A stretch of DNA of 64,000 nt from Candidatus Dojkabacteria bacterium (GTDB taxonomy: Bacteria; Patescibacteriota; Dojkabacteria; B142; OLB20), in contig CP129475.1 of the NCBI GenBank assembly GCA_030583785.1, positions 25,941 to 89,940 on the forward strand, in the 5' to 3' direction. The position numbers and the translations under genes were made by a program. The notes under the pieces are model-generated. The model searched no databases. It had not been told where the DNA came from and saw only the letters and a list, made by a program, of their open reading frames with translations. Shown here one piece after another: positions 2,827 to 54,956 of this stretch. Numbering within the stretch: position 1 is the stretch's first letter; the number at the start of each line of letters is the position of its first letter.

Positions 2827-3810
2827 TTGACTAAAAAAGTCCAAATAACTTATGCTGAATTTATCTACCCAATTATTGAATTTATGAATAAAATCCCTGG
2901 ATTTGTATTAATAATGTTTGCTGCATCATTGTGGGCGCTTGATGCCCTTCTAAGAACACATCTGACTTTTGCGATTCCTTCGATTTGGATTGTCTTTTTT
3001 GAGCATCTGGCAGGAGTTCTTCTTTTCCTGCCTGTTTTATATAACAGTCGATCAGTCTTTAATAAACTGAAAAAGAGAGATTGGATGATACTGCTTCTGA
3101 TGACAATTGTGAGTAGTGTCTTGGGCACCCTCTTGTTTACCGAAGCTTTAAATAAAAGCTTTGCTGTTGGCGATTTTGCTTCTCCTGTATTGTTGCAGAA
3201 ACTGCAACCCATGTTTGTAATTATGCTGTCTACGATCTTTTTAAAAGAAGTATTATCATATAGATTTCTTCTTCTGGCTGTTGTGGCCTTAATCGGCAGC
3301 TATATGATCAGTTTCGGCACAGATAGTGTCTTTCTTGATTTCAGCTCAAAGCTAGAGGTGTCCCTATTGGCAGTCGGAGCAGCAGTTGCCTGGGGAGCCG
3401 GAACGGTAATGAGTAAACATCTGCTTACAAAGGTTGATGCTGCACCTGCTACTGCTTTACGAATGCTTCTCGCTGTTCCTATTAGTTTTGCTGTTGCGTT
3501 GCTTATTGGTCAGGATTTGCAATTATCCGCAATCGGAAGCGCAGAGATCCTCAGAATTATATTGATAGCTTTATCAACTGGGGCAGTCGCAATTCTTATC
3601 TATTACAAAGGTTTGATCAAAACCAAAGCCTCTGTATCTGCTTTTGCAGAACTGGCGTTCCCAGTTGCCTCAATTTTTATAGCCATATCAGTTCTAAATC
3701 CTTACGGACAACCGCAAACTTTGACACTTGCAAATTCATTTGGAGTTATTATTCTCCTGATTTCAATTCTCTTAATAAGCACAGAAAATGAATCTAAAAA
3801 GAGCATTTAG
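2827..3810 (+). CDS. Polytopic membrane protein, EamA/DMT-type transporter-like
   Basis: About 10 predicted hydrophobic helices arranged as two repeated halves; there is no catalytic motif. Confidence 0.4.
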   Translation: MTKKVQITYAEFIYPIIEFMNKIPGFVLIMFAASLWALDALLRTHLTFAIPSIWIVFFEHLAGVLLFLPVLYNSRSVFNKLKKRDWMILLLMTIVSSVLGTLLFTEALNKSFAVGDFASPVLLQKLQPMFVIMLSTIFLKEVLSYRFLLLAVVALIGSYMISFGTDSVFLDFSSKLEVSLLAVGAAVAWGAGTVMSKHLLTKVDAAPATALRMLLAVPISFAVALLIGQDLQLSAIGSAEILRIILIALSTGAVAILIYYKGLIKTKASVSAFAELAFPVASIFIAISVLNPYGQPQTLTLANSFGVIILLISILLISTENESKKSI

Positions 3811-4543
3811 CGGGTATGTAATTGCAGGAGAAAGATTAGGTAGCAAGATTGGCTATCCAACAATCAATTTTGACCCAGAAATAATCAGTCAAAGCACAAG
3901 ACAAGGTGTTTGGGCAGCAAGTGTTGTTGTTGACGGAGATATTTACCTAGCCGCACTCTACTTTGGTCCCAAATATGTAGGTAATAAAAGTGAGCTGGTT
4001 TTAGAAATTAATATCTTAGAATATAGCGGTAGTATATATAAAAAGAGAGTCAGGGTAGAGTTGCTTAAATTTGTGCGCGAGCCGATAAAATATGACGATA
4101 TATCACTACTTAGAGAGCAAATAGGTAAGGATATTAAGCATATCGAGTTAATAACAGGATTGTTATCTAGAGAGAATATATATGCGGTCGTCGGAGTTTC
4201 TTTAGATACTGCAAAGTATGGTTATCGGGTATATAAGAGTATGTCAGATGCAGGCATAAATGTATCTGCAGTAAACCCAAAGTATAGTCAAGAACAAGGA
4301 ATTAAATTTTACAATTCGGTAGCCGACCTTAATGATAATGCCGAGGTAATCGTTTTCGTAGTTCCACCTGCTGTTGCAGAGAACATTATTCATGATAATA
4401 TCGAAGTTTTACGAAACAAACTTGTCTGGTTTCAGCCAGGATCAGAATCCGAAAATGCCTCTAAACTATGCGAAGTCAACCATATTGATTATGTACTAAA
4501 CAAATGCGTGGTGGTAGACGGATTGAGCCTGCAGTTAAGGTAG
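3788..4543 (+). CDS. Fusion of a riboflavin kinase domain with a CoA-binding (YccU-like) domain
   Basis: The N-terminus GYVIAGERLGSKIGYPTINF matches the riboflavin kinase G.V..G...G..LG(F/Y)PT(A/I)N motif. The C-terminal half IYAVVGVS...YGYRVYKSMSDAGINVSAVNPKY...VVPPAVAENI resembles the CoA_binding_2 Rossmann domain. The FAD-synthetase domain of a full RibF is absent. Confidence 0.5.
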   Translation: MNLKRAFSGYVIAGERLGSKIGYPTINFDPEIISQSTRQGVWAASVVVDGDIYLAALYFGPKYVGNKSELVLEINILEYSGSIYKKRVRVELLKFVREPIKYDDISLLREQIGKDIKHIELITGLLSRENIYAVVGVSLDTAKYGYRVYKSMSDAGINVSAVNPKYSQEQGIKFYNSVADLNDNAEVIVFVVPPAVAENIIHDNIEVLRNKLVWFQPGSESENASKLCEVNHIDYVLNKCVVVDGLSLQLR

Positions 4544-26266: not shown

Positions 26267-26295
26267 TTGACAATTAGGTATACAGGGTATACACT
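26267..26295 (+). promoter_or_regulatory. lexA promoter (TTGACA-N17-TACACT) with an overlapping GTATAC-N3-GTATAC palindrome, a candidate SOS operator
   Basis: TTGACA at 26267-26272 and TACACT at 26290-26295. The perfect inverted repeat GTATAC agg GTATAC at 26278-26292 spans the spacer and -10, about 25 nt upstream of the lexA ATG. Confidence 0.35.
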
Positions 26296-26319: not shown

Positions 26320-26955
26320 ATGGCTCCACACCTGACACCGGCGCAGTCTACTGTGCTTAAGTATATTAAAAACCATATTCTGGCCAGAGGTTATGCGCCA
26401 ACTTTGTCTGAACTGCAAATCTCGCTTGGGGGTATTACTAAAAGAGCTGTGGTTAAACATCTCGAGGCACTAGAACGAAAAGGCCATATTCTCAGATCCA
26501 GCAAACCCAGGGGTATAACTTTAGTAGAAGATACCGGCAGTCCAGTAATGAGCATGAATATTCTCGGTTATGCCAATGCTGGTGCACCTTTAGTTTATGC
26601 AGAAGAACAAAAAATTGGCGTACTGCGTATAGATAAAAGTCTGCTTCCTGTAACAAAAAATGTATTTGCGCTAATCATTAAAGGTGACTCTATGAATAGG
26701 CGCAAGCTTAACGGTATACCATTATCCAACGGCAATTATGCCATTGTTGCCAACAATCAAGAAGTTCGCAATGGTGATGTTGTTTTAGCAATTATAGATG
26801 GTTGTGCCACCATAAAATCTTACCGTCACGATGGCCGAATGGTGGTTCTTTATCCAGAATCCACCAATTCTTTACACAGACCTATATACCTAAGCAGTGA
26901 TAACGAAGCGAGCATTTATGGCAAAGTAATCTCGGTTTTGCGTAATCCGGTTTAA
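26320..26955 (+). CDS. lexA: LexA repressor
   Basis: N-terminal wHTH (TPAQSTVLKYIKNHILARGYAPTLSELQ...HLEALERKG). The C-terminal S24 domain has the catalytic Ser in IKGDSMN and the catalytic Lys in TIKSY. Confidence 0.8.
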   Translation: MAPHLTPAQSTVLKYIKNHILARGYAPTLSELQISLGGITKRAVVKHLEALERKGHILRSSKPRGITLVEDTGSPVMSMNILGYANAGAPLVYAEEQKIGVLRIDKSLLPVTKNVFALIIKGDSMNRRKLNGIPLSNGNYAIVANNQEVRNGDVVLAIIDGCATIKSYRHDGRMVVLYPESTNSLHRPIYLSSDNEASIYGKVISVLRNPV

Positions 26956-26973
26956 TAGCGTATACATCAAATT

Positions 26974-27294
26974 ATGTCCGTAACAACATCTCCGGTTGGG
27001 TTTGCTTCACCGGCAGAAGATGTAATGGAGCGCAGTCTCGATTTACACGAACTGCTGGTAAAGCACCCTGCTGCCACTTTCTTTGTGCGTGTTAGTGGCA
27101 ATCAATTAGCAGTAAAGGGAATCTTCACAGACGATATTCTTATCGTAGATAGATCCCTAAAACCTACGATTAATTCTTTGATAGTAGCTATTATCGAGGG
27201 TGACTTTGTACTTGGCTATTTTAATTCATTTTCTAAAAAAGATAATCTCGAAGTGTGGGGAGTTGTGGTTTCGCTTATCAGGGAGAATCTATAA
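26974..27294 (+). CDS. umuD: UmuD'-like protein (S24-fold, catalytically inactive, N-terminally truncated)
   Basis: GFASPAEDVMERSLDLHELLVKHPAATFFVRVSGNQLAVKGIFTDDILIVDRS aligns residue-for-residue with E. coli UmuD 25-85 ([53 protein letters not shown]). GDSM is GNQL here, and the KK of UmuD 97-98 is absent. Confidence 0.65.
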   Translation: MSVTTSPVGFASPAEDVMERSLDLHELLVKHPAATFFVRVSGNQLAVKGIFTDDILIVDRSLKPTINSLIVAIIEGDFVLGYFNSFSKKDNLEVWGVVVSLIRENL

Positions 27295-27296
27295 AA

Positions 27297-28574
27297 ATGA
27301 TTGCCGTAGTTGATTGCAACAATTTTTTTGTCTCCTGTGAGTTAGTTTTTCACCCAGAGCTTAAAGGGCATCCCGTTATGGTTGCATCAAACAATGACGG
27401 ATGCATTGTTGCCCGTTCGCCCGAAGTTAAGGCCTTGGGGATCCCAATGGGAGCACCTGCATATCAATGGAAGGATTTGATCAGGCAGCATGACATCAAA
27501 ATATTTTCAGGCAATTTTGCTCTTTACGGAGATCTATCCAAGCGAGTAATGCAGATTCTTCTGCAAGCTGCTCCTACAGTAGAGATATATTCGATAGATG
27601 AAGCCTTCTTAGAATTTCCATCTTTGACAAACGAAATGATCATCTCTATTTGTAAAAACCTAAGAAGTCGGTTATTACAGAGTACAGGCATCCCTGTAAG
27701 TATTGGTATCGGAAAAACAAAAACATTGGCCAAGATTGCCGTCGAGATAGCAAAAAAGAATTCTGAATTTCAGGGCGTGTTTTCTGCCGAAAGCGACAAA
27801 TTTGATTCATTTCTTGCTCATATGCCAACCTCTGACATCTGGGGCATCGGTCGCAAATTGAGCGAACGCCTAAAGTGTTTTGGTATCTATACGGCTAAAG
27901 ATCTCAAACAAGCTCAGGACATAATTATCAGAAAATGCACGCATCTCCCCGGAATTCGTACCACATATGAATTACGAGGTATTAAATGCATAGAACTGCA
28001 AACTGCCCATTCTTCGCGTAAAGGCATAACAGCTTCTCGTTCATTTGGTCATCCTGTATCTACTTATACCGAAATGGCTGAAGCGATTGCTCTTTATACA
28101 ACCAGAGCCGCCGAAAGACTGCGTTCTGATAAATCAATTGCATCTTGGATACAAATCTGCATCGTTACCAATTATTTTCGTAAAGATCAAAAACAATATG
28201 TCGGATTTGACTCGGGACTTCTGCTTCAGCCAACAGCAGTTACTTCAGAAATAATTAAAACAGCTCATATATTATTAAAGCGTATCTTTAAAGAAGGATT
28301 CATATATAAAAAGGCTATTGTCAACTTGGGCGGAATCACTCCGGCATCTCAGCAACAAATAAGTATGCTCGCAGACATAAAAACCTCCCAGCGTCTTTCA
28401 AGACTAATGACGGCAGTAGATAAAATCAACAGGAAGGCAGGACGAAACAAAATCCATTATGCGTCTTGCGGTATATTAAAAAAGAAAAGTTGGCATCCAA
28501 AATCAGAAATGCTTTCGCGAAGGTATACAACAAGTTGGCAAGAACTGCCGGTCGTAAAAGCAATCTATAGCTAA
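27297..28574 (+). CDS. umuC: Y-family DNA polymerase (UmuC/DinB, Pol V catalytic subunit-like)
   Basis: MIAVVDCNNFFVSCE... matches the UmuC/DinB N-terminus (ALxDCNxFYxSCE). The likely start is the ATG 2 nt after the umuD stop. The listed ORF starts earlier, at 27255. Confidence 0.75.
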   Translation: MIAVVDCNNFFVSCELVFHPELKGHPVMVASNNDGCIVARSPEVKALGIPMGAPAYQWKDLIRQHDIKIFSGNFALYGDLSKRVMQILLQAAPTVEIYSIDEAFLEFPSLTNEMIISICKNLRSRLLQSTGIPVSIGIGKTKTLAKIAVEIAKKNSEFQGVFSAESDKFDSFLAHMPTSDIWGIGRKLSERLKCFGIYTAKDLKQAQDIIIRKCTHLPGIRTTYELRGIKCIELQTAHSSRKGITASRSFGHPVSTYTEMAEAIALYTTRAAERLRSDKSIASWIQICIVTNYFRKDQKQYVGFDSGLLLQPTAVTSEIIKTAHILLKRIFKEGFIYKKAIVNLGGITPASQQQISMLADIKTSQRLSRLMTAVDKINRKAGRNKIHYASCGILKKKSWHPKSEMLSRRYTTSWQELPVVKAIYS

Positions 28575-49385: not shown

Positions 49386-52300
49386 CTATTGTCCCATCTC
49401 TGCGCAGGACGAACCGAACAATTGACATATTACTTCGTTAGGTACAGTCGGCTTCTTCGCTTTTCTGGAGAAATCGTTGTCGTTCAAAATACCACTTGCT
49501 CCGTAACAGTATCTTTTTCCATCGGCTGCAGTAGCTAGATTGCTCGATGCGTTCCAGCTATGGGCGAATGTACTAACATGAGATGATCCCGTTGCCGTAG
49601 ACGGAGGTGCAGCTGCATTGCAGCCAAGCAACTGTCCATATAGTAAATAAGGATCGACATCCATCTCAACACCATTGTGTGTGTAGTTGGCTAGTATATG
49701 AATATGAGCATTATTAACCGAGTAAACTCCGCCTTTAAAGTTACCATCTTTATCGGATTTATTGACAGTAACATATCCGATCAATTGCCCGACATTTACT
49801 TCTTTACCTTCAGCAGCCTCTGGTAATCTTCTGTTAACTGCTAAATGCTGAATGTGGTACTTGATTCCAGACCTTCCCTGCAAAATTATGATATCGCCGT
49901 AACCACCATCGTACCTGCGAAGAATTCTGCCGGCCTCTGGTGCAACAACTCGAAGTTTGGCATCAGATAAATCTGGGTTAGGATCACTATCTGAATTAAT
50001 TGGCCATGGATTTAAGTCTATCGGCAGTCCTCTGTTTTGGAAATGTGTAAACCATCCATAAGGACCCTGAAAACAAGAGTGTCCCGCTGGTGATGTCATA
50101 GGGCAGGTTGTGCCGGGTGCTCTTCCTGTAATAGGAGTTTCTATGTCAGTTCCCGGTCCTTCTTCAACTAAACATTCAATAACAGTAGCATCTGTCAAAT
50201 TGTCTCTAGCCCAAGTACCCAGTCTCGCTACATTTTCACAATAGGCCTTACCGTTGCAACTGGCTCGGTTATAGTACCAGGCACGGCCTGCGTAGACCAT
50301 GTCATTTGCAGTCCAAGATTCAGCTGGAATATAGTCAGGGTAGGCAACACCATCGTAAAAGTTGCGTTGAAATCTTGCTGCTTCTCCAAGATCTATTGCT
50401 GTGGCGCATATAACATCACCAATTCTGTGGCGACTAAAATTGTTTTTGTAGTAATCTCTAAGTGCAGGATCAGCTACATTGTCGTAGTATGTTCCGCCAA
50501 CTTGACCGGGTATTTCTTGCCCTCTACTTCTATCGACACCAAGAAAGTCCATACATGCTTCAAGAAGCTCTCTAGTGTTATCACGATCACCGGGACGACT
50601 CCATAATGGTCTGTTATCGACTATTCTTTTAAATCTTTCTGGCATATGCTGTCCGAGTCCTTTGCCATATGTATCTACGGGATGAGCATCTGCCCAAAGT
50701 GTTAATTGATTCGGATCGCCACCACAGGTATCAGCAAATATTGTATAGTCAGGCGCATCACTTTTAATAGTTTGCACAGTTACTCTGCCTCGATACCATT
50801 CTGCATAGGTGTCAACACATCTATGTCTTGTCTCAAAATTAAATATGGTCCAAGGAATATACCAAGGTATTCTAGAGCCTCCTCCTTGTGAATTGATAAA
50901 ATTAACTGCTTTTTGAACTAAGCTGGTGAAGTCATCACCTGATCCAGGGATTAGAGAACAACATTCGTCTGCAGGGCTAACCGGATCGATAGGTGAAGTT
51001 GATCCTGTTGCCGATAAGAGTATGGTAGCCGGATCGATGTAGTCCCTTCCACCTGCTGCGGTCTCTTTATACAGAGTGAAATGAAGGTGTCGACCTGTTG
51101 AGTTACCGGATGTACCCATAATTCCGAGTTTTGTACCTTTTGTTATTGTTGAGTTTAGTTTTACACCGCTTTCTACGGTTGCCAAATGAGCATAAAGGCT
51201 ATATACAGAGCTTCCATCGGTGAGTACATGTTTGATTTTTATATAGTTGCCATACCCTGAGCCACATGTGCTTCCTACAGATCCCTGAGCAGGGCAATTA
51301 TCAACTTTGTCTACTACTGTGCCGTCTGCAACTGCAACAATAGAAGGATCGCTATTATTAATTGTTACAAGATCTACACCGTTATGGTATTTACCAAGTT
51401 CTGGGTAATTATAATTTGTTGGACCAGTATATCCCCCAGAAATCTGATAACCGCCATTTCTAAACTGATTCACACAGGTGTTATATACAGTCTGACTATC
51501 TGTCGCTCCATAACAGTGAGACATAATAATCGAACCTTTTGCTGCTACCAATGGGCTACCAAAATCTTCAAGATTAACCTGCGGAGCTGGTTTTCCACCT
51601 GTTGCAGGATTAATGCATTGGTTTATTCCAGGTACAAAATTACTTGTTCTTGGTTGTTTAAATCCTCCACCAGAAGTTAACGGATCGGTTGTCCTATCCG
51701 CAAAAAGCCATTCCTCTAGTGGATCTACTTCACTTTGATCTCTAGCAATACAATCACATTGACCTTTGGGACTTCCGTCTGGACAATCACAATCACAAAA
51801 ATCGATAATAATCTTACCAGTCTCGGTATTTCTAAGATTTAGAGATCCGCACTGTGCTTCGCGAACATTCTTGAATGATTTTCCTGTGTCGTAAGTGTCG
51901 ACATTTGTGAGAAAAACACTTATTCTTTCAAGCATTCTAGGGATTTGTCCAAGCCAAGGATAATAGTAATACAGATCTACTGCGGATACATCTTTTTCTT
52001 CACCCAGAGGATCAATAAACTTTGCCAAACGATAATCTCCTTCGTAGACAGGAAGATATTTTTCTGGCTCAGAAAGATTGCTAATATATTCTCTAAGAAA
52101 ATGATCGGGTATGTTTTCGATATCAAAATCTGAATCTGGGTTTTCAAATAGCTTTAAGTTATATTTAAGAACCTCAGCCAATAGGTCACCCTCAAGTCTT
52201 TTAGCTGGATCGTATGAAGATCGGTTATTTTTGGTGTAGTCAGATTTGCTCTGAGTCATTTGCAGGTCATAGACTCTAAGCCCCCATTCAGTTGTTAATC

Positions 52301-54956
52301 CAGAGTTAACATTATGAATGATTTTGTATGGACTGTTGATTCTTTCCAGTTGGTATACTAGGTATAGGTATCTTGACAGTCCTATTAAATCGGTTGCCTG
52401 ATAACCATTTCTTACCCAGCGCATATGTGGGTCACCACCTACCGAATCGACTTGCTTGTTGAGTCCTCTGCAAGCTCGATAAATGCTGTCAATACTTGTT
52501 GAACAAGTTGTTTGAACTCCGCAAATGTCTACAAAAGGAATGACTTCACCGCTCCAAGGAACTGTATCTCCGGGACAGAATGAGACAGAATACGAGCTTC
52601 CCGGAGCTTGTCTGGAAACTCTGGACACGAAGCCGGCCGTAATTGCATCTGGATAGGATTCTCCGCCGGGGAGATCATAGTATTCGCGAAGTCTGTCATT
52701 TTGATCTGGTAATTGACATCTAGCTCCAGTAGTTTTTATCTGAACTTGTCTATCGTTCTCTTGAACTTGGACAGCAATTCCAAATTGAGCATCGCAAAGT
52801 TGGTTTTCGGTAATTTCGTAATTCCAATCATCTTCGATCAAGTATTCATATGGACCAGAGGTGTCGTCGTTGACAAACTTCATCGATTTTCCGTCTAGCT
52901 GTCTAAAGCTATTAATTCCCTTACCTGGAATTCTGGAGCAGTATATTTCGTCGGGGATTGTCTCTCCTTCGACATTTGCTCCTTGAGAAAAGAAACTAAA
53001 CAGTTTTTTAAGAAAACTAACCAGCACATTGTCGTTAATGTTTTCTGGGGCAAGTGTAGCTCCACCTGCATTTTTTAAGTTCTGTGTTGATAAAGGATGT
53101 ATGCGCATATCGAAAGTATCTATGGGATCAGATACTACTTCGTTCCAGCTAAGGATTCCGCAAGCCGAAGCGCCACCAAGAAGAGGTGTTTTAATATTTA
53201 CAGCACTTGATTCATTAGTACGAATAAATCTTGCCAGACCAGGAAACTCACTGGTAAAGAAGAGCTCAAAGGGAGATTGGGTCCCGTTCGTTTTTTGATA
53301 TAGATAATATGGATGAGTAATGTTTCTAAAACTTAAGGTTTTACAATAAGGAGTGTAGGGATTAGCATCAGTTTTCTCTGATGTTGCTAGAAATGAGATG
53401 AGAGGGAATTCACGCATTCCTCCGGTATATGCAAATCCTGCAGTCCAGTTTTTTTCATCTGCACAAATTTGCTGATAAGGTTTACTGTCAGCGCTGTTAG
53501 TCTGGAATCCAGTTGGGTGATTCGGATCACATGAGTTAAGATCAAGCCAAACTTGAAGTTTACCATTAGGCGATAAAGATTCTCGTTCGGTATCTGAGCT
53601 TTGTAAGAGTAAACCATTTATTGTTTTTGGTTGTACTTCACAACTTCGCATTGTCCAATGTGTAGGCAGTTCGAGATGTTCTGCTGTTTGCGGGTCAACC
53701 TGTGCAGCAATGCTCAGATCTTTTGGTTGAGGTAGTTCACGGATATTACACGCCCCAAGAGGACCAAAAATTTGAGCTATGGCATTATCGTCAAGTTCTA
53801 GATTTGACCAGGGGGTTCCATCTGGCAATGTACGATCTCCTCCTTGTCCGAATGCATTAAAGAATAAGGCGAAAACAATTCTTCCGTTTTCTGCTATTGC
53901 CCTCACTTCTTCTGCAAGCATAGAATAGTCTTTCAAAAAATTGCCCATCTCGTTGATTCCCCAAGGCTTACTGTCAGTAAAGACTCTGCCGGCAAGGTCT
54001 ATTGCGGCCATAACATTAGATTCTGGTTGTGTTGGGATTCCGGAATATACATTGAAGGTCCACATGTCTACATGATCATTACCACCGGCATCAACAAACT
54101 TTTGATGACCTTCTGTAAAGATTGCTCCACCATCGGCAAAAATATTGTATGTCGGACCAGAAATTACAATATTTGCAGCATGATCAGATCTCCTGACAAC
54201 TTCGGCAAAACAACGATGAAAATCTGCAGCTTTTGTGAAACGATCCATCATAGGTGTATTCACATTCCCTAGAAACCAGGATTCTGAATTGATCTCGTTT
54301 AGTGGTGCAGCAACAAACTTAATTCCTGGTGCTTGATCTGCAACTTCTAAAGTTGCATTACCTGCTGCTCGCCCTGCACTACAAGCATCTGTAATACCAG
54401 CCGTTCCAACTTTGATTTCGCAATCGGGCGGTAGGCCTCTTTCTCCGTCAACTCTGCCATCGCTTCCTTGATTTGTATCTCCATAACAATACCTATATAC
54501 GCCTGTCAGACCACTTGTTTTCAATGCTTCTGATGCAACCCCTGAGTGAACTGGTCCTTGTAGAGTATGAAGATAATACTTCATGCCCCATTCCAAGATT
54601 TTTCCGTAGTTATCGCTTTGTAGCGGTTCAGTTAGTAAGTTGACGCCAAATTTATCGCAAACAGCTACAGCTCCGTCATTGCTACTTGGAGTCCCTGTCG
54701 GAGATGTGGTTGGATTTGCCTGAGCAATATTTTGTTGCAGGATTCTGGCAATAATGCTTTCTTCACTACCAATAAGTCTTTCTGGTTCAATTTCATTTCC
54801 AGAAAAGGAATCATTGCCAATCGATATTGTTGTTCTAGTGATTGAGAATAATATTCCAAAAGCGGCAACAGAAACTACCACAACTAGCATTAAAGCCTGT
54901 GGTCGTTTATATAGTTCAATTAAAGCCGTTTTAATCTTCAGCAATGTCATCTGCAT
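49386..54956 (-). CDS. Giant (1856 aa) membrane-anchored surface protein with a GH clan-A-like region and two M23 (LytM-type) peptidase domains
   Basis: N-terminal TM LMLVVVVSVAAFGILFSI. AAPLNEINSES and ~110 aa later WGINEMGNF (a clan-A acid/base and nucleophile-like pair). First M23: YHNGVDL...YAHL...GRHLHFTLY (HxxxD...HxH) at nt ~51060-51420. Second M23-like: GYGDIIILQGRSGIKYHIQHL...NNAHIHILA at nt ~49680-50100. Cys-rich segments are present, including CDCDCPDGSPKGQCDC. Confidence 0.6.
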   Translation of the reverse strand: MQMTLLKIKTALIELYKRPQALMLVVVVSVAAFGILFSITRTTISIGNDSFSGNEIEPERLIGSEESIIARILQQNIAQANPTTSPTGTPSSNDGAVAVCDKFGVNLLTEPLQSDNYGKILEWGMKYYLHTLQGPVHSGVASEALKTSGLTGVYRYCYGDTNQGSDGRVDGERGLPPDCEIKVGTAGITDACSAGRAAGNATLEVADQAPGIKFVAAPLNEINSESWFLGNVNTPMMDRFTKAADFHRCFAEVVRRSDHAANIVISGPTYNIFADGGAIFTEGHQKFVDAGGNDHVDMWTFNVYSGIPTQPESNVMAAIDLAGRVFTDSKPWGINEMGNFLKDYSMLAEEVRAIAENGRIVFALFFNAFGQGGDRTLPDGTPWSNLELDDNAIAQIFGPLGACNIRELPQPKDLSIAAQVDPQTAEHLELPTHWTMRSCEVQPKTINGLLLQSSDTERESLSPNGKLQVWLDLNSCDPNHPTGFQTNSADSKPYQQICADEKNWTAGFAYTGGMREFPLISFLATSEKTDANPYTPYCKTLSFRNITHPYYLYQKTNGTQSPFELFFTSEFPGLARFIRTNESSAVNIKTPLLGGASACGILSWNEVVSDPIDTFDMRIHPLSTQNLKNAGGATLAPENINDNVLVSFLKKLFSFFSQGANVEGETIPDEIYCSRIPGKGINSFRQLDGKSMKFVNDDTSGPYEYLIEDDWNYEITENQLCDAQFGIAVQVQENDRQVQIKTTGARCQLPDQNDRLREYYDLPGGESYPDAITAGFVSRVSRQAPGSSYSVSFCPGDTVPWSGEVIPFVDICGVQTTCSTSIDSIYRACRGLNKQVDSVGGDPHMRWVRNGYQATDLIGLSRYLYLVYQLERINSPYKIIHNVNSGLTTEWGLRVYDLQMTQSKSDYTKNNRSSYDPAKRLEGDLLAEVLKYNLKLFENPDSDFDIENIPDHFLREYISNLSEPEKYLPVYEGDYRLAKFIDPLGEEKDVSAVDLYYYYPWLGQIPRMLERISVFLTNVDTYDTGKSFKNVREAQCGSLNLRNTETGKIIIDFCDCDCPDGSPKGQCDCIARDQSEVDPLEEWLFADRTTDPLTSGGGFKQPRTSNFVPGINQCINPATGGKPAPQVNLEDFGSPLVAAKGSIIMSHCYGATDSQTVYNTCVNQFRNGGYQISGGYTGPTNYNYPELGKYHNGVDLVTINNSDPSIVAVADGTVVDKVDNCPAQGSVGSTCGSGYGNYIKIKHVLTDGSSVYSLYAHLATVESGVKLNSTITKGTKLGIMGTSGNSTGRHLHFTLYKETAAGGRDYIDPATILLSATGSTSPIDPVSPADECCSLIPGSGDDFTSLVQKAVNFINSQGGGSRIPWYIPWTIFNFETRHRCVDTYAEWYRGRVTVQTIKSDAPDYTIFADTCGGDPNQLTLWADAHPVDTYGKGLGQHMPERFKRIVDNRPLWSRPGDRDNTRELLEACMDFLGVDRSRGQEIPGQVGGTYYDNVADPALRDYYKNNFSRHRIGDVICATAIDLGEAARFQRNFYDGVAYPDYIPAESWTANDMVYAGRAWYYNRASCNGKAYCENVARLGTWARDNLTDATVIECLVEEGPGTDIETPITGRAPGTTCPMTSPAGHSCFQGPYGWFTHFQNRGLPIDLNPWPINSDSDPNPDLSDAKLRVVAPEAGRILRRYDGGYGDIIILQGRSGIKYHIQHLAVNRRLPEAAEGKEVNVGQLIGYVTVNKSDKDGNFKGGVYSVNNAHIHILANYTHNGVEMDVDPYLLYGQLLGCNAAAPPSTATGSSHVSTFAHSWNASSNLATAADGKRYCYGASGILNDNDFSRKAKKPTVPNEVICQLFGSSCAEMGQ

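Follow-up and report, generated by a model that had tools for sequence, protein, structure and literature searches.

The lexA-umuD-umuC cassette of the Dojkabacteria genome analyzed here contains, between an intact lexA and an intact umuC, an ATG-initiated ORF for an uncleavable and shortened UmuD of 106 aa (26974..27294, forward strand; referred to below as mini-UmuD). Comparison with its homologs suggests that this protein is probably a ready-made, constitutive UmuD'-like accessory subunit of Pol V, which would not need the self-cleavage step. Mini-UmuD is a natural variant of a known system and not a new kind of system. All positions refer to the window, i.e. the whole stretch of 64,000 nucleotides that was analyzed.

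Mini-UmuD and its replaced self-cleavage sites

The homology of the 106-aa protein to UmuD, for which the earlier note had argued, is beyond doubt. BLASTP aligned it with E. coli UmuD at 32% identity (E 7e-24), the matching PDB chains include 8gmt_B (E 2e-17) and 1umu_A (E 4.5e-17), and the PF00717 domain (Peptidase_S24; LexA/UmuD/CI) was detected with 39.5 bits (cut-off 23.3). In the AF2 model the core (residues 30–106, pLDDT 77–91) consists of five strands with a disordered arm ahead of them, and Foldseek identified UmuD' as the nearest fold (TM about 0.6), with LexA C-terminal domains also among the best matches. The best-scoring NCBIfam model was NF007621 (UmuD, "autoproteolytic subunit"), which gave 93.8 bits, below its cut-off of 110, and matched only over profile positions 2–74 of 115; the syntenic ortholog from WS6 OLB20 (P0003) reached 161 bits. 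The LexA model TIGR00498 gave 26 bits (cut-off 111), and no LexA_DNA_bind domain was found in mini-UmuD. The exact 106-aa protein is recorded in databases as coming from candidate division WS6 bacterium OLB21 / Candidatus Dojkabacteria, where it bears the name "LexA repressor" or "S24 family peptidase" (KXK09928.1, WKZ28028.1, UniRef100_A0A136KKU6). Both names mislead, since mini-UmuD has neither the DNA-binding domain nor the catalytic dyad, and "LexA repressor" is a misannotation.

The alignments pair V8-G9 of mini-UmuD with C24-G25 of E. coli UmuD, Q44 (27103–27105) with Ser60 (SGNQL vs SGDSM), and G81 (27214–27216) with Lys97, and so bear out the proposal that both self-cleavage residues have been replaced. 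The codons CAA for Q44 and GGC for G81 are each at least two substitutions away from Ser or Lys. Both hallmarks of an active S24 autopeptidase are absent, namely the Ser-Lys dyad and the Ala-Gly (Cys-Gly) scissile bond: P1 of the cleavage site is Val8, followed by Gly9; of 94 canonical UmuDs, 99% have Ala at P1, and E. coli UmuD has Cys. With its nucleophile, its general base and its P1 residue replaced, mini-UmuD cannot cleave itself.

Two further statements of the earlier note, that the protein starts exactly at the post-cleavage N-terminus and that it aligns residue for residue with E. coli UmuD throughout, did not hold. A leader of eight residues (M1–V8, MSVTTSPV) precedes G9, the first residue of the UmuC-binding arm (G9–D16, GFASPAED; 26998–27021), so the equivalent of Gly25 is not a free N-terminus, and the mini-UmuD sequence has no alternative start codon past the ATG and ahead of G9. 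The ATG lacks a visible Shine-Dalgarno sequence upstream. After about residue 85, a hairpin of approximately 17 aa (E. coli ~101–117), which includes the family-conserved L107 and N111, has been deleted ahead of the C-terminal strand EVWGVVVSLI. What stands of the idea of a pre-processed UmuD' is a protein that is uncleavable and N-terminally shortened, with conserved arm and dimer strand; an exact UmuD' it is not, on account of the 8-residue leader.

The ORF does not continue upstream. The lexA gene shares its frame with mini-UmuD and ends in TAA TAG (26953–26958), i.e. with its own stop and a second one in the next codon, after which five codons are left before the ATG. There is no room for a hidden N-terminus, because the C-terminus of LexA is conserved to the last residue in the OLB20 ortholog; rescue by an upstream extension or a frameshift, which the earlier note had named as the finding that would overturn its reading, was thus ruled out by the same-frame stops and the conserved 3' end of lexA. 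An artefact of assembly or sequencing was also ruled out, by the identical mini-UmuD in many independent assemblies: the index of the assembly collection lists the protein in 75 blocks, and each of the 23 contigs that were read has the ORF intact. The umuD DNA is identical in four same-species loci, a look-up by exact protein being biased in what it retrieves, and the sole variant of mini-UmuD that we found carries D53E.

The operon and its counterpart in WS6 OLB20

A sigma-70-like promoter (TTGACA-N17-TACACT, 26267..26295, forward strand; 10/12 matches in a promoter scan) precedes lexA. It is the sole strong forward-strand site upstream of the cassette, and its -35 element is conserved in WS6 OLB20, as is a TAGGTAT element ~20 nt further upstream. 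Its spacer and -10 element are overlapped by a candidate LexA operator, GGTATACAGGGTATAC (26277..26292, forward strand), composed of two GTATAC palindromes 3 nt apart. The same 16-mer is found unchanged in the lexA promoter of OLB20 (locus L007, about 2913–2928), where the flanks have diverged, and the exact pattern GTATAC-N3-GTATAC occurs only once in the window. From this we infer that LexA would bind here. A search of the window for a wider SOS regulon with the operator-like motif returned one extra hit, intragenic and with one mismatch (52353–52367), which is consistent with chance; the 1856-aa ORF that contains it (49386–54956, reverse strand) most likely does so by chance.

The lexA gene (26320..26955, forward strand) encodes a protein of 211 aa with intact autocleavage features: the A-G site in ANAGAP, the Ser in KGDSM and the Lys in TIKSY. 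It matches TIGR00498 with 131.9 bits (cut-off 111), contains the LexA_DNA_bind and Peptidase_S24 domains, and is 83% identical to OLB20 LexA. The mini-UmuD ORF begins 18 nt after lexA, and the ATG of umuC lies 2 nt past the umuD stop. UmuC (27297..28574, forward strand; 425 aa) is a Y-family polymerase with IMS (129 bits), IMS_C (60 bits) and DUF4113 (75 bits) domains; its translation includes VVDCNNFF and YSIDEAF, the motifs of the catalytic carboxylates. Its best NCBIfam match is NF002955 (372 bits, below the cut-off of 431), and it is 53% identical to OLB20 UmuC. Mini-UmuD shows two features of a Pol V accessory subunit in that it adjoins an intact, co-oriented umuC and has both the arm GFASPAED and the C-terminal dimer strand EVWGVV. 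Automatic gene calls start umuC at a GTG at 27255 (439 aa), with a 40-nt overlap with umuD; we place the start at the ATG at 27297, because of alignments with other UmuCs and a GGGAG ~10 nt upstream. In the draft assembly of OLB21 (L034), umuC contains a 1-nt indel and is called as a 398-aa product. Downstream of the W..EL motif, the tail of UmuC has 8 residues in OLB21, where the protein ends in PVVKAIYS, 5 in OLB20 and 4–6 elsewhere. Tail length shows no clear pattern with respect to dead UmuDs, with 4–6 residues accompanying canonical and dead partners alike; the longer tail of OLB21 hints at a remodelled contact, a pattern that is not common to other dead forms.

A scan of GTDB species-representative genomes for UmuC located the syntenic locus of WS6 OLB20, which comprises an RND transporter gene, lexA, umuD, umuC and, on the opposite strand, a gene for an NAD(P)HX epimerase/dehydratase. 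OLB20 UmuD is canonical (134 aa, with the A-G site, GHSM, TVKR and the hairpin) and 43% identical to mini-UmuD, so the orthologous locus does not share the truncation and the loss of Ser and Lys, and we conclude that the derived state arose in the OLB21 lineage. Only 16 residues precede the A-G site in OLB20 UmuD; compared with these, the 8-residue leader of mini-UmuD amounts to half of the ancestral pro-segment length. Among 5.8 billion clusters there are no proteins between 49% and 100% identity to mini-UmuD. Accordingly, we found no close ortholog that has the derived state (the best other match is at 49%), and in the GTDB scan no UmuC locus lies nearer than that of OLB20 at 53%.

Some peculiarities of the compared assemblies should be mentioned. 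The OLB20 lexA contains an extra G in a G-run (L007, about 3060–3072; ctggggggggatt vs cttgggggtatt in the window), which causes a frameshift after ~35 codons. This points either to an assembly error at the homopolymer or to a disrupted lexA; the OLB20 assembly also has a split RND transporter gene upstream. In two strains of the same species as the window (L032 and L035), the DNA of lexA and umuD is identical to that of the window and umuC has 45 differences (3.5%), which fall into 22 synonymous and 17 non-synonymous codons. The listed umuC differences are clustered in the first half of the gene (locus ~3470–3880; window ~27440–27850) in what looks like a recombination tract. In strain L033 the situation is reversed, with differences confined to the transporter gene and lexA.

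Selection, recurrence of dead UmuDs and alternative explanations

To describe what mini-UmuD has kept, we defined as conserved those columns that reach at least 85% in the 94 canonical UmuDs (n = 48), of which it retains 36. The 12 missed columns are P16 in the absent N-terminus, A24 and P27 in the region of the cleavage site, S60, M61 and A64 in the Ser motif, T95–R98 in the Lys motif, and L107 and N111 in the deleted hairpin, which includes residues conserved at 95–100% in canonical UmuDs. The codon comparison with OLB20 is equally uneven along the protein: residues 9–40 (arm and first strand) include 11 identical codons, 17 with synonymous and 4 with non-synonymous changes; residues 41–83 have 12 synonymous and 28 non-synonymous codons; in the leader all eight codons are non-synonymous. 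Relative to the OLB20 ortholog, the N-terminal arm is under strong purifying selection, and the C-terminal dimer strand EVWGVV is likewise conserved by purifying selection. In a relative-rate analysis the OLB21 UmuD branch has accumulated ~2–4 times as many unique changes as the OLB20 branch, nearly all of them in residues 41–106 (seven outgroups were informative, while an eighth, P0002, was too near to OLB20 UmuD). The same test for UmuC revealed neither asymmetry nor acceleration. Taken together, the loss in mini-UmuD looks targeted, unlike decay.

Uncleavable UmuDs are not confined to OLB21, and the view that the arrangement is unusual can be kept only in a relative sense: among the nearest 121 sequences, 114 have both Ser and Lys, seven lack at least one of them and five (~4%) lack both, and dead versions of ~100 aa lie beside umuC elsewhere. 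A profile built from three short forms and searched against 1.84 billion representatives recovered many UmuD-like proteins of 87–115 aa with leaders of 0–10 residues, replacement of Ser and/or Lys and the same hairpin deletion (e.g. P0088, P0143, P0147, P0171, P0182, P0184, P0199, P0216). P0088 (L001–L004) is a dead short UmuD encoded directly upstream of umuC. P0216 (L037) is also found upstream of umuC, its gene starting at the contig end, so that the N-terminus is possibly cut. For P0147 (L039/L040) the downstream gene is incomplete on the short contigs, the ORF in L039 matching UmuC, and for P0143 (L038), which begins exactly with M-GFPSPA, it is a fragment too short to identify. At the loci retrieved, short dead UmuDs beside umuC thus recur in unrelated metagenomic lineages. 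In the dead homologs P1 drifts to V, I or T alongside the loss of Ser and Lys, as expected of a cleavage site that is no longer used. The hairpin deletion is also present in P0145, P0217 and P0264 together with an intact dyad and a full N-terminus, and is therefore a separable structural variant. A scan of IMG/VR for a phage-encoded short dead form yielded only distant matches, with at most 56% identity over partial matches. In the literature searched, coverage of which is incomplete, we found no description of naturally dead, hairpin-deleted UmuDs.

The searches also brought up dead UmuDs of other architectures. Full-length proteins (about 140–165 aa) with a complete pro-segment and a dead dyad include P0011, P0142, P0175, P0183 and others; a combination of Ser to Ala with Lys to Arg recurs among them, in many cases along with a V-G site. 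One of them, P0029 from WWE3 (L006, 5001–5429; GCA_013335095.1), is encoded directly upstream of umuC. We also encountered tandem UmuD-UmuD fusions of 220–285 aa (P0122–P0130, P0139, P0141, P0144, P0169 and others), in which the first domain has the AGFPSPA arm, is often dead in the sequences inspected and lacks the hairpin in P0125 and P0128, and the second domain, which begins only around profile position 34–40, has no arm and usually retains Ser and Lys. Such fusions resemble an asymmetric UmuD' dimer whose two halves are covalently joined.

Three other explanations of mini-UmuD have to be weighed. We regard it as unlikely that the protein is permanently held in the uncleaved state, like S60A or K97A variants, and acts as a brake that restrains UmuC, possibly together with the replicase, to give a tamed polymerase. 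This would agree with the persistence of a leader and a V-G site in the absence of protease activity, and with the importance of the exact UmuD' N-terminus in E. coli; moreover, permanently unprocessed UmuD exists in nature, since full-length dead UmuDs (A/R for S/K, VG site) adjoin umuC, e.g. P0029 of WWE3. Of a regulatory arm one would expect constraint, yet half of the 16 ancestral pro-residues are gone and the remaining 8 have all changed non-synonymously. A counterpart of E. coli F18 is also missing; in E. coli UmuD the side chain of this residue, contributed by the partner protomer, completes the pocket for the RecA L2 loop (PMC9926225). The other short dead homologs, with their leaders of 0–10 residues and the exact M-GFPSPA start of P0143, point toward the UmuD' state instead. 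Cleavage of V8-G9 in trans by another S24 protease, most plausibly LexA on RecA*, under which processing would still depend on RecA, seems very improbable to us. In E. coli, cleavage of UmuD is intermolecular, one protomer cutting the other (PMC9926225), the co-encoded LexA retains A-G, Ser and Lys, and the RecA*-contact residues F36, V38, F78, E75 and D77 are kept in mini-UmuD; this scenario is however difficult to reconcile with Val at P1 in place of the nearly universal Ala, with the drift of P1 in other dead homologs, and with a leader that is unconstrained and has no partner-arm F18 for the RecA L2 pocket.

It is also quite unlikely that mini-UmuD is a decaying relic in a reduced genome, whose UmuC works alone or is dispensable. 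The ORF is intact in every assembly read, three quarters of the conserved columns (36/48) are kept and all misses fall within the protease apparatus, changes in the arm are mostly synonymous (17 versus 4 non-synonymous), UmuC is not relaxed, the AF2 core is confident, and the same architecture occurs beside umuC in unrelated lineages, all of which speaks against decay. The genomes of CPR bacteria are reductive, and this reduction would suit a relic, as would the faster evolution of the globular half of mini-UmuD, the loss of the active-site residues and of a conserved hairpin, and the restriction of the derived state to one species-level lineage.

Predicted function and comparison with known systems

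In the reading that we prefer, a constitutive UmuD'-like subunit, lexA, umuD and umuC would be co-transcribed from one promoter with the conserved candidate LexA operator, and mini-UmuD would be produced only upon cleavage of LexA. It would then dimerize and bind UmuC directly, its leader being tolerated, without RecA*-stimulated processing, and would act as the constitutive UmuD'-like subunit of a Pol V-like translesion polymerase. RecA would still be needed to activate the polymerase through the RecA-NT motif of UmuC. This motif lies in the N-terminal part of DUF4113, and it is through RecA-NT that RecA activates Pol V (PMC6511836). Mini-UmuD has also kept the RecA*-contact residues: F36, V38, F78, E75 and D77 correspond to E. 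coli Y52, V54, F94, D91 and E93. RecA-dependent activation is still to be expected because both the UmuC DUF4113 and these contact residues are retained, and the suggestion that LexA is the only remaining checkpoint was overstated.

According to published models of Pol V, one UmuD' arm occupies the cleft between the palm and the little finger of UmuC so that its N-terminus lies close to the active site, and armless UmuD' dimerizes but is inactive (PMC11791011; PMC12926913). This insertion next to the active site and the inactivity of the armless form explain why the arm is the most constrained part of mini-UmuD. In the published models the sheet of the UmuD' dimer is extended by a strand from the UmuC tail, and the WGVV strand is retained in mini-UmuD. 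In E. coli, removal or substitution of a single N-terminal residue of UmuD' alters mutagenesis (PMC11791011), and on account of this sensitivity the 8-residue leader counts against full equivalence with UmuD'. In the published AlphaFold model of Pol V, UmuC is anchored by its C-terminal carboxylate to the UmuD' residues S36, T71 and K73, which presumably are S60, T95 and K97 of the full-length protein, the sole numbering that fits the residue types. The corresponding residues of mini-UmuD are Q, V and G, hence this contact of the UmuC C-terminus cannot be the same.

In the textbook SOS response, mutagenic Pol V is delayed by a late checkpoint, the RecA*-stimulated self-cleavage of UmuD. The OLB21 operon is a natural experiment in that it has lost this step genetically and has kept both its polymerase and the arm that binds the polymerase under selection, and it suggests that some lineages run Pol V on transcriptional control and RecA activation only. 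Mini-UmuD, which belongs to a recurrent and unannotated group, is a natural separation-of-function allele: it separates the parts needed for polymerase function (arm, barrel and dimer strand) from those that may serve regulation only (pro-segment, dyad and perhaps the 101–117 hairpin), and it bears on the docking of the UmuC C-terminus onto S60, T95 and K97 that the AlphaFold Pol V model predicts. We tentatively put forward the possibility of a recurrent, undescribed "mini-UmuD" class, made up of an arm and a five-strand barrel without pro-segment, dyad and 101–117 hairpin, whose members would be constitutive subunits that converge on the YolD/YqjX design. If such a class exists, Pol V assembly would require neither autoproteolysis nor the modelled docking of the C-terminus of UmuC on Ser60, Thr95 and Lys97, and the RecA*-timed delay of mutagenesis would have been abandoned in several lineages, genome-reduced CPR bacteria among them. 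A modest practical consequence is that these proteins, being annotated as "LexA repressor" or "S24 peptidase" or left unnamed, will be misclassified in surveys of SOS regulators or of "autoproteolytic" UmuDs.

With E. coli UmuD/UmuD' (PDB 1UMU, 1AY9, 8GMT) mini-UmuD shares the fold and the family, the arm motif GF(P/A)SPAxD, the segments LDL..L..HPAATFFVRV, IVDR and WGVV, and the position of its gene immediately upstream of umuC; the adjacent lexA and the conserved operator-like motif suggest that SOS control may be shared as well. It differs in the absence of Ser60, Lys97, Cys/Ala24 and residues ~101–117, and in having a leader of 8 aa where E. coli UmuD has a removable pro-segment of 24 aa. 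Direct expression of UmuD' bypasses the RecA* cleavage step. Engineered non-cleavable UmuDs (S60A, K97A) are inactivated at the same residues as mini-UmuD, but such laboratory constructs, plasmid-expressed umuD' included, are of full length or start exactly at G25, whereas in the natural mini-UmuD allele a dead site occurs together with a short leader and a deletion. The K97A variant is the one in the cryo-EM structure 8GMT (PMC9926225).

HumD of phage P1 resembles mini-UmuD in being genome-encoded, roughly of the size of UmuD' and in no need of processing. It differs in that it starts exactly with M-GFPSPA, retains a Ser (in ADSH), the Lys (in IKR) and the hairpin, and lacks a cognate umuC alongside. 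The 1999 work of McLenigan on HumD reportedly established that a pre-truncated UmuD' can work, and HumD is a precedent for mini-UmuD in this respect; given HumD and decades of work with plasmid-borne umuD', a constitutive UmuD' would be mechanistically unsurprising. In its RefSeq record HumD is described as complementing UmuD' and as having a LexA site upstream. Membership of mini-UmuD in the HumD family (NF051876, cut-off 120) was rejected on its score of 54.1 bits, compared with 221.5 for P1 HumD as a control and 55–78 for other short dead UmuDs; mini-UmuD is therefore an analog of HumD and not a member of its family.

A parallel in design is provided by YolD/YqjX (PF08863) of Gram-positive bacteria, in which an unstructured arm is joined to a small SH3-like beta-barrel without protease activity, adjoining a UmuC-like polymerase (PMC6511836; PMC12926913). 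PF08863 has no match in mini-UmuD at E <= 0.1, PF00717 being the sole hit, and YqjX has been modelled as a monomer, whereas mini-UmuD keeps the dimer strand of UmuD'. Mini-UmuD thus converges on the YolD/YqjX design without any sequence relationship to it.
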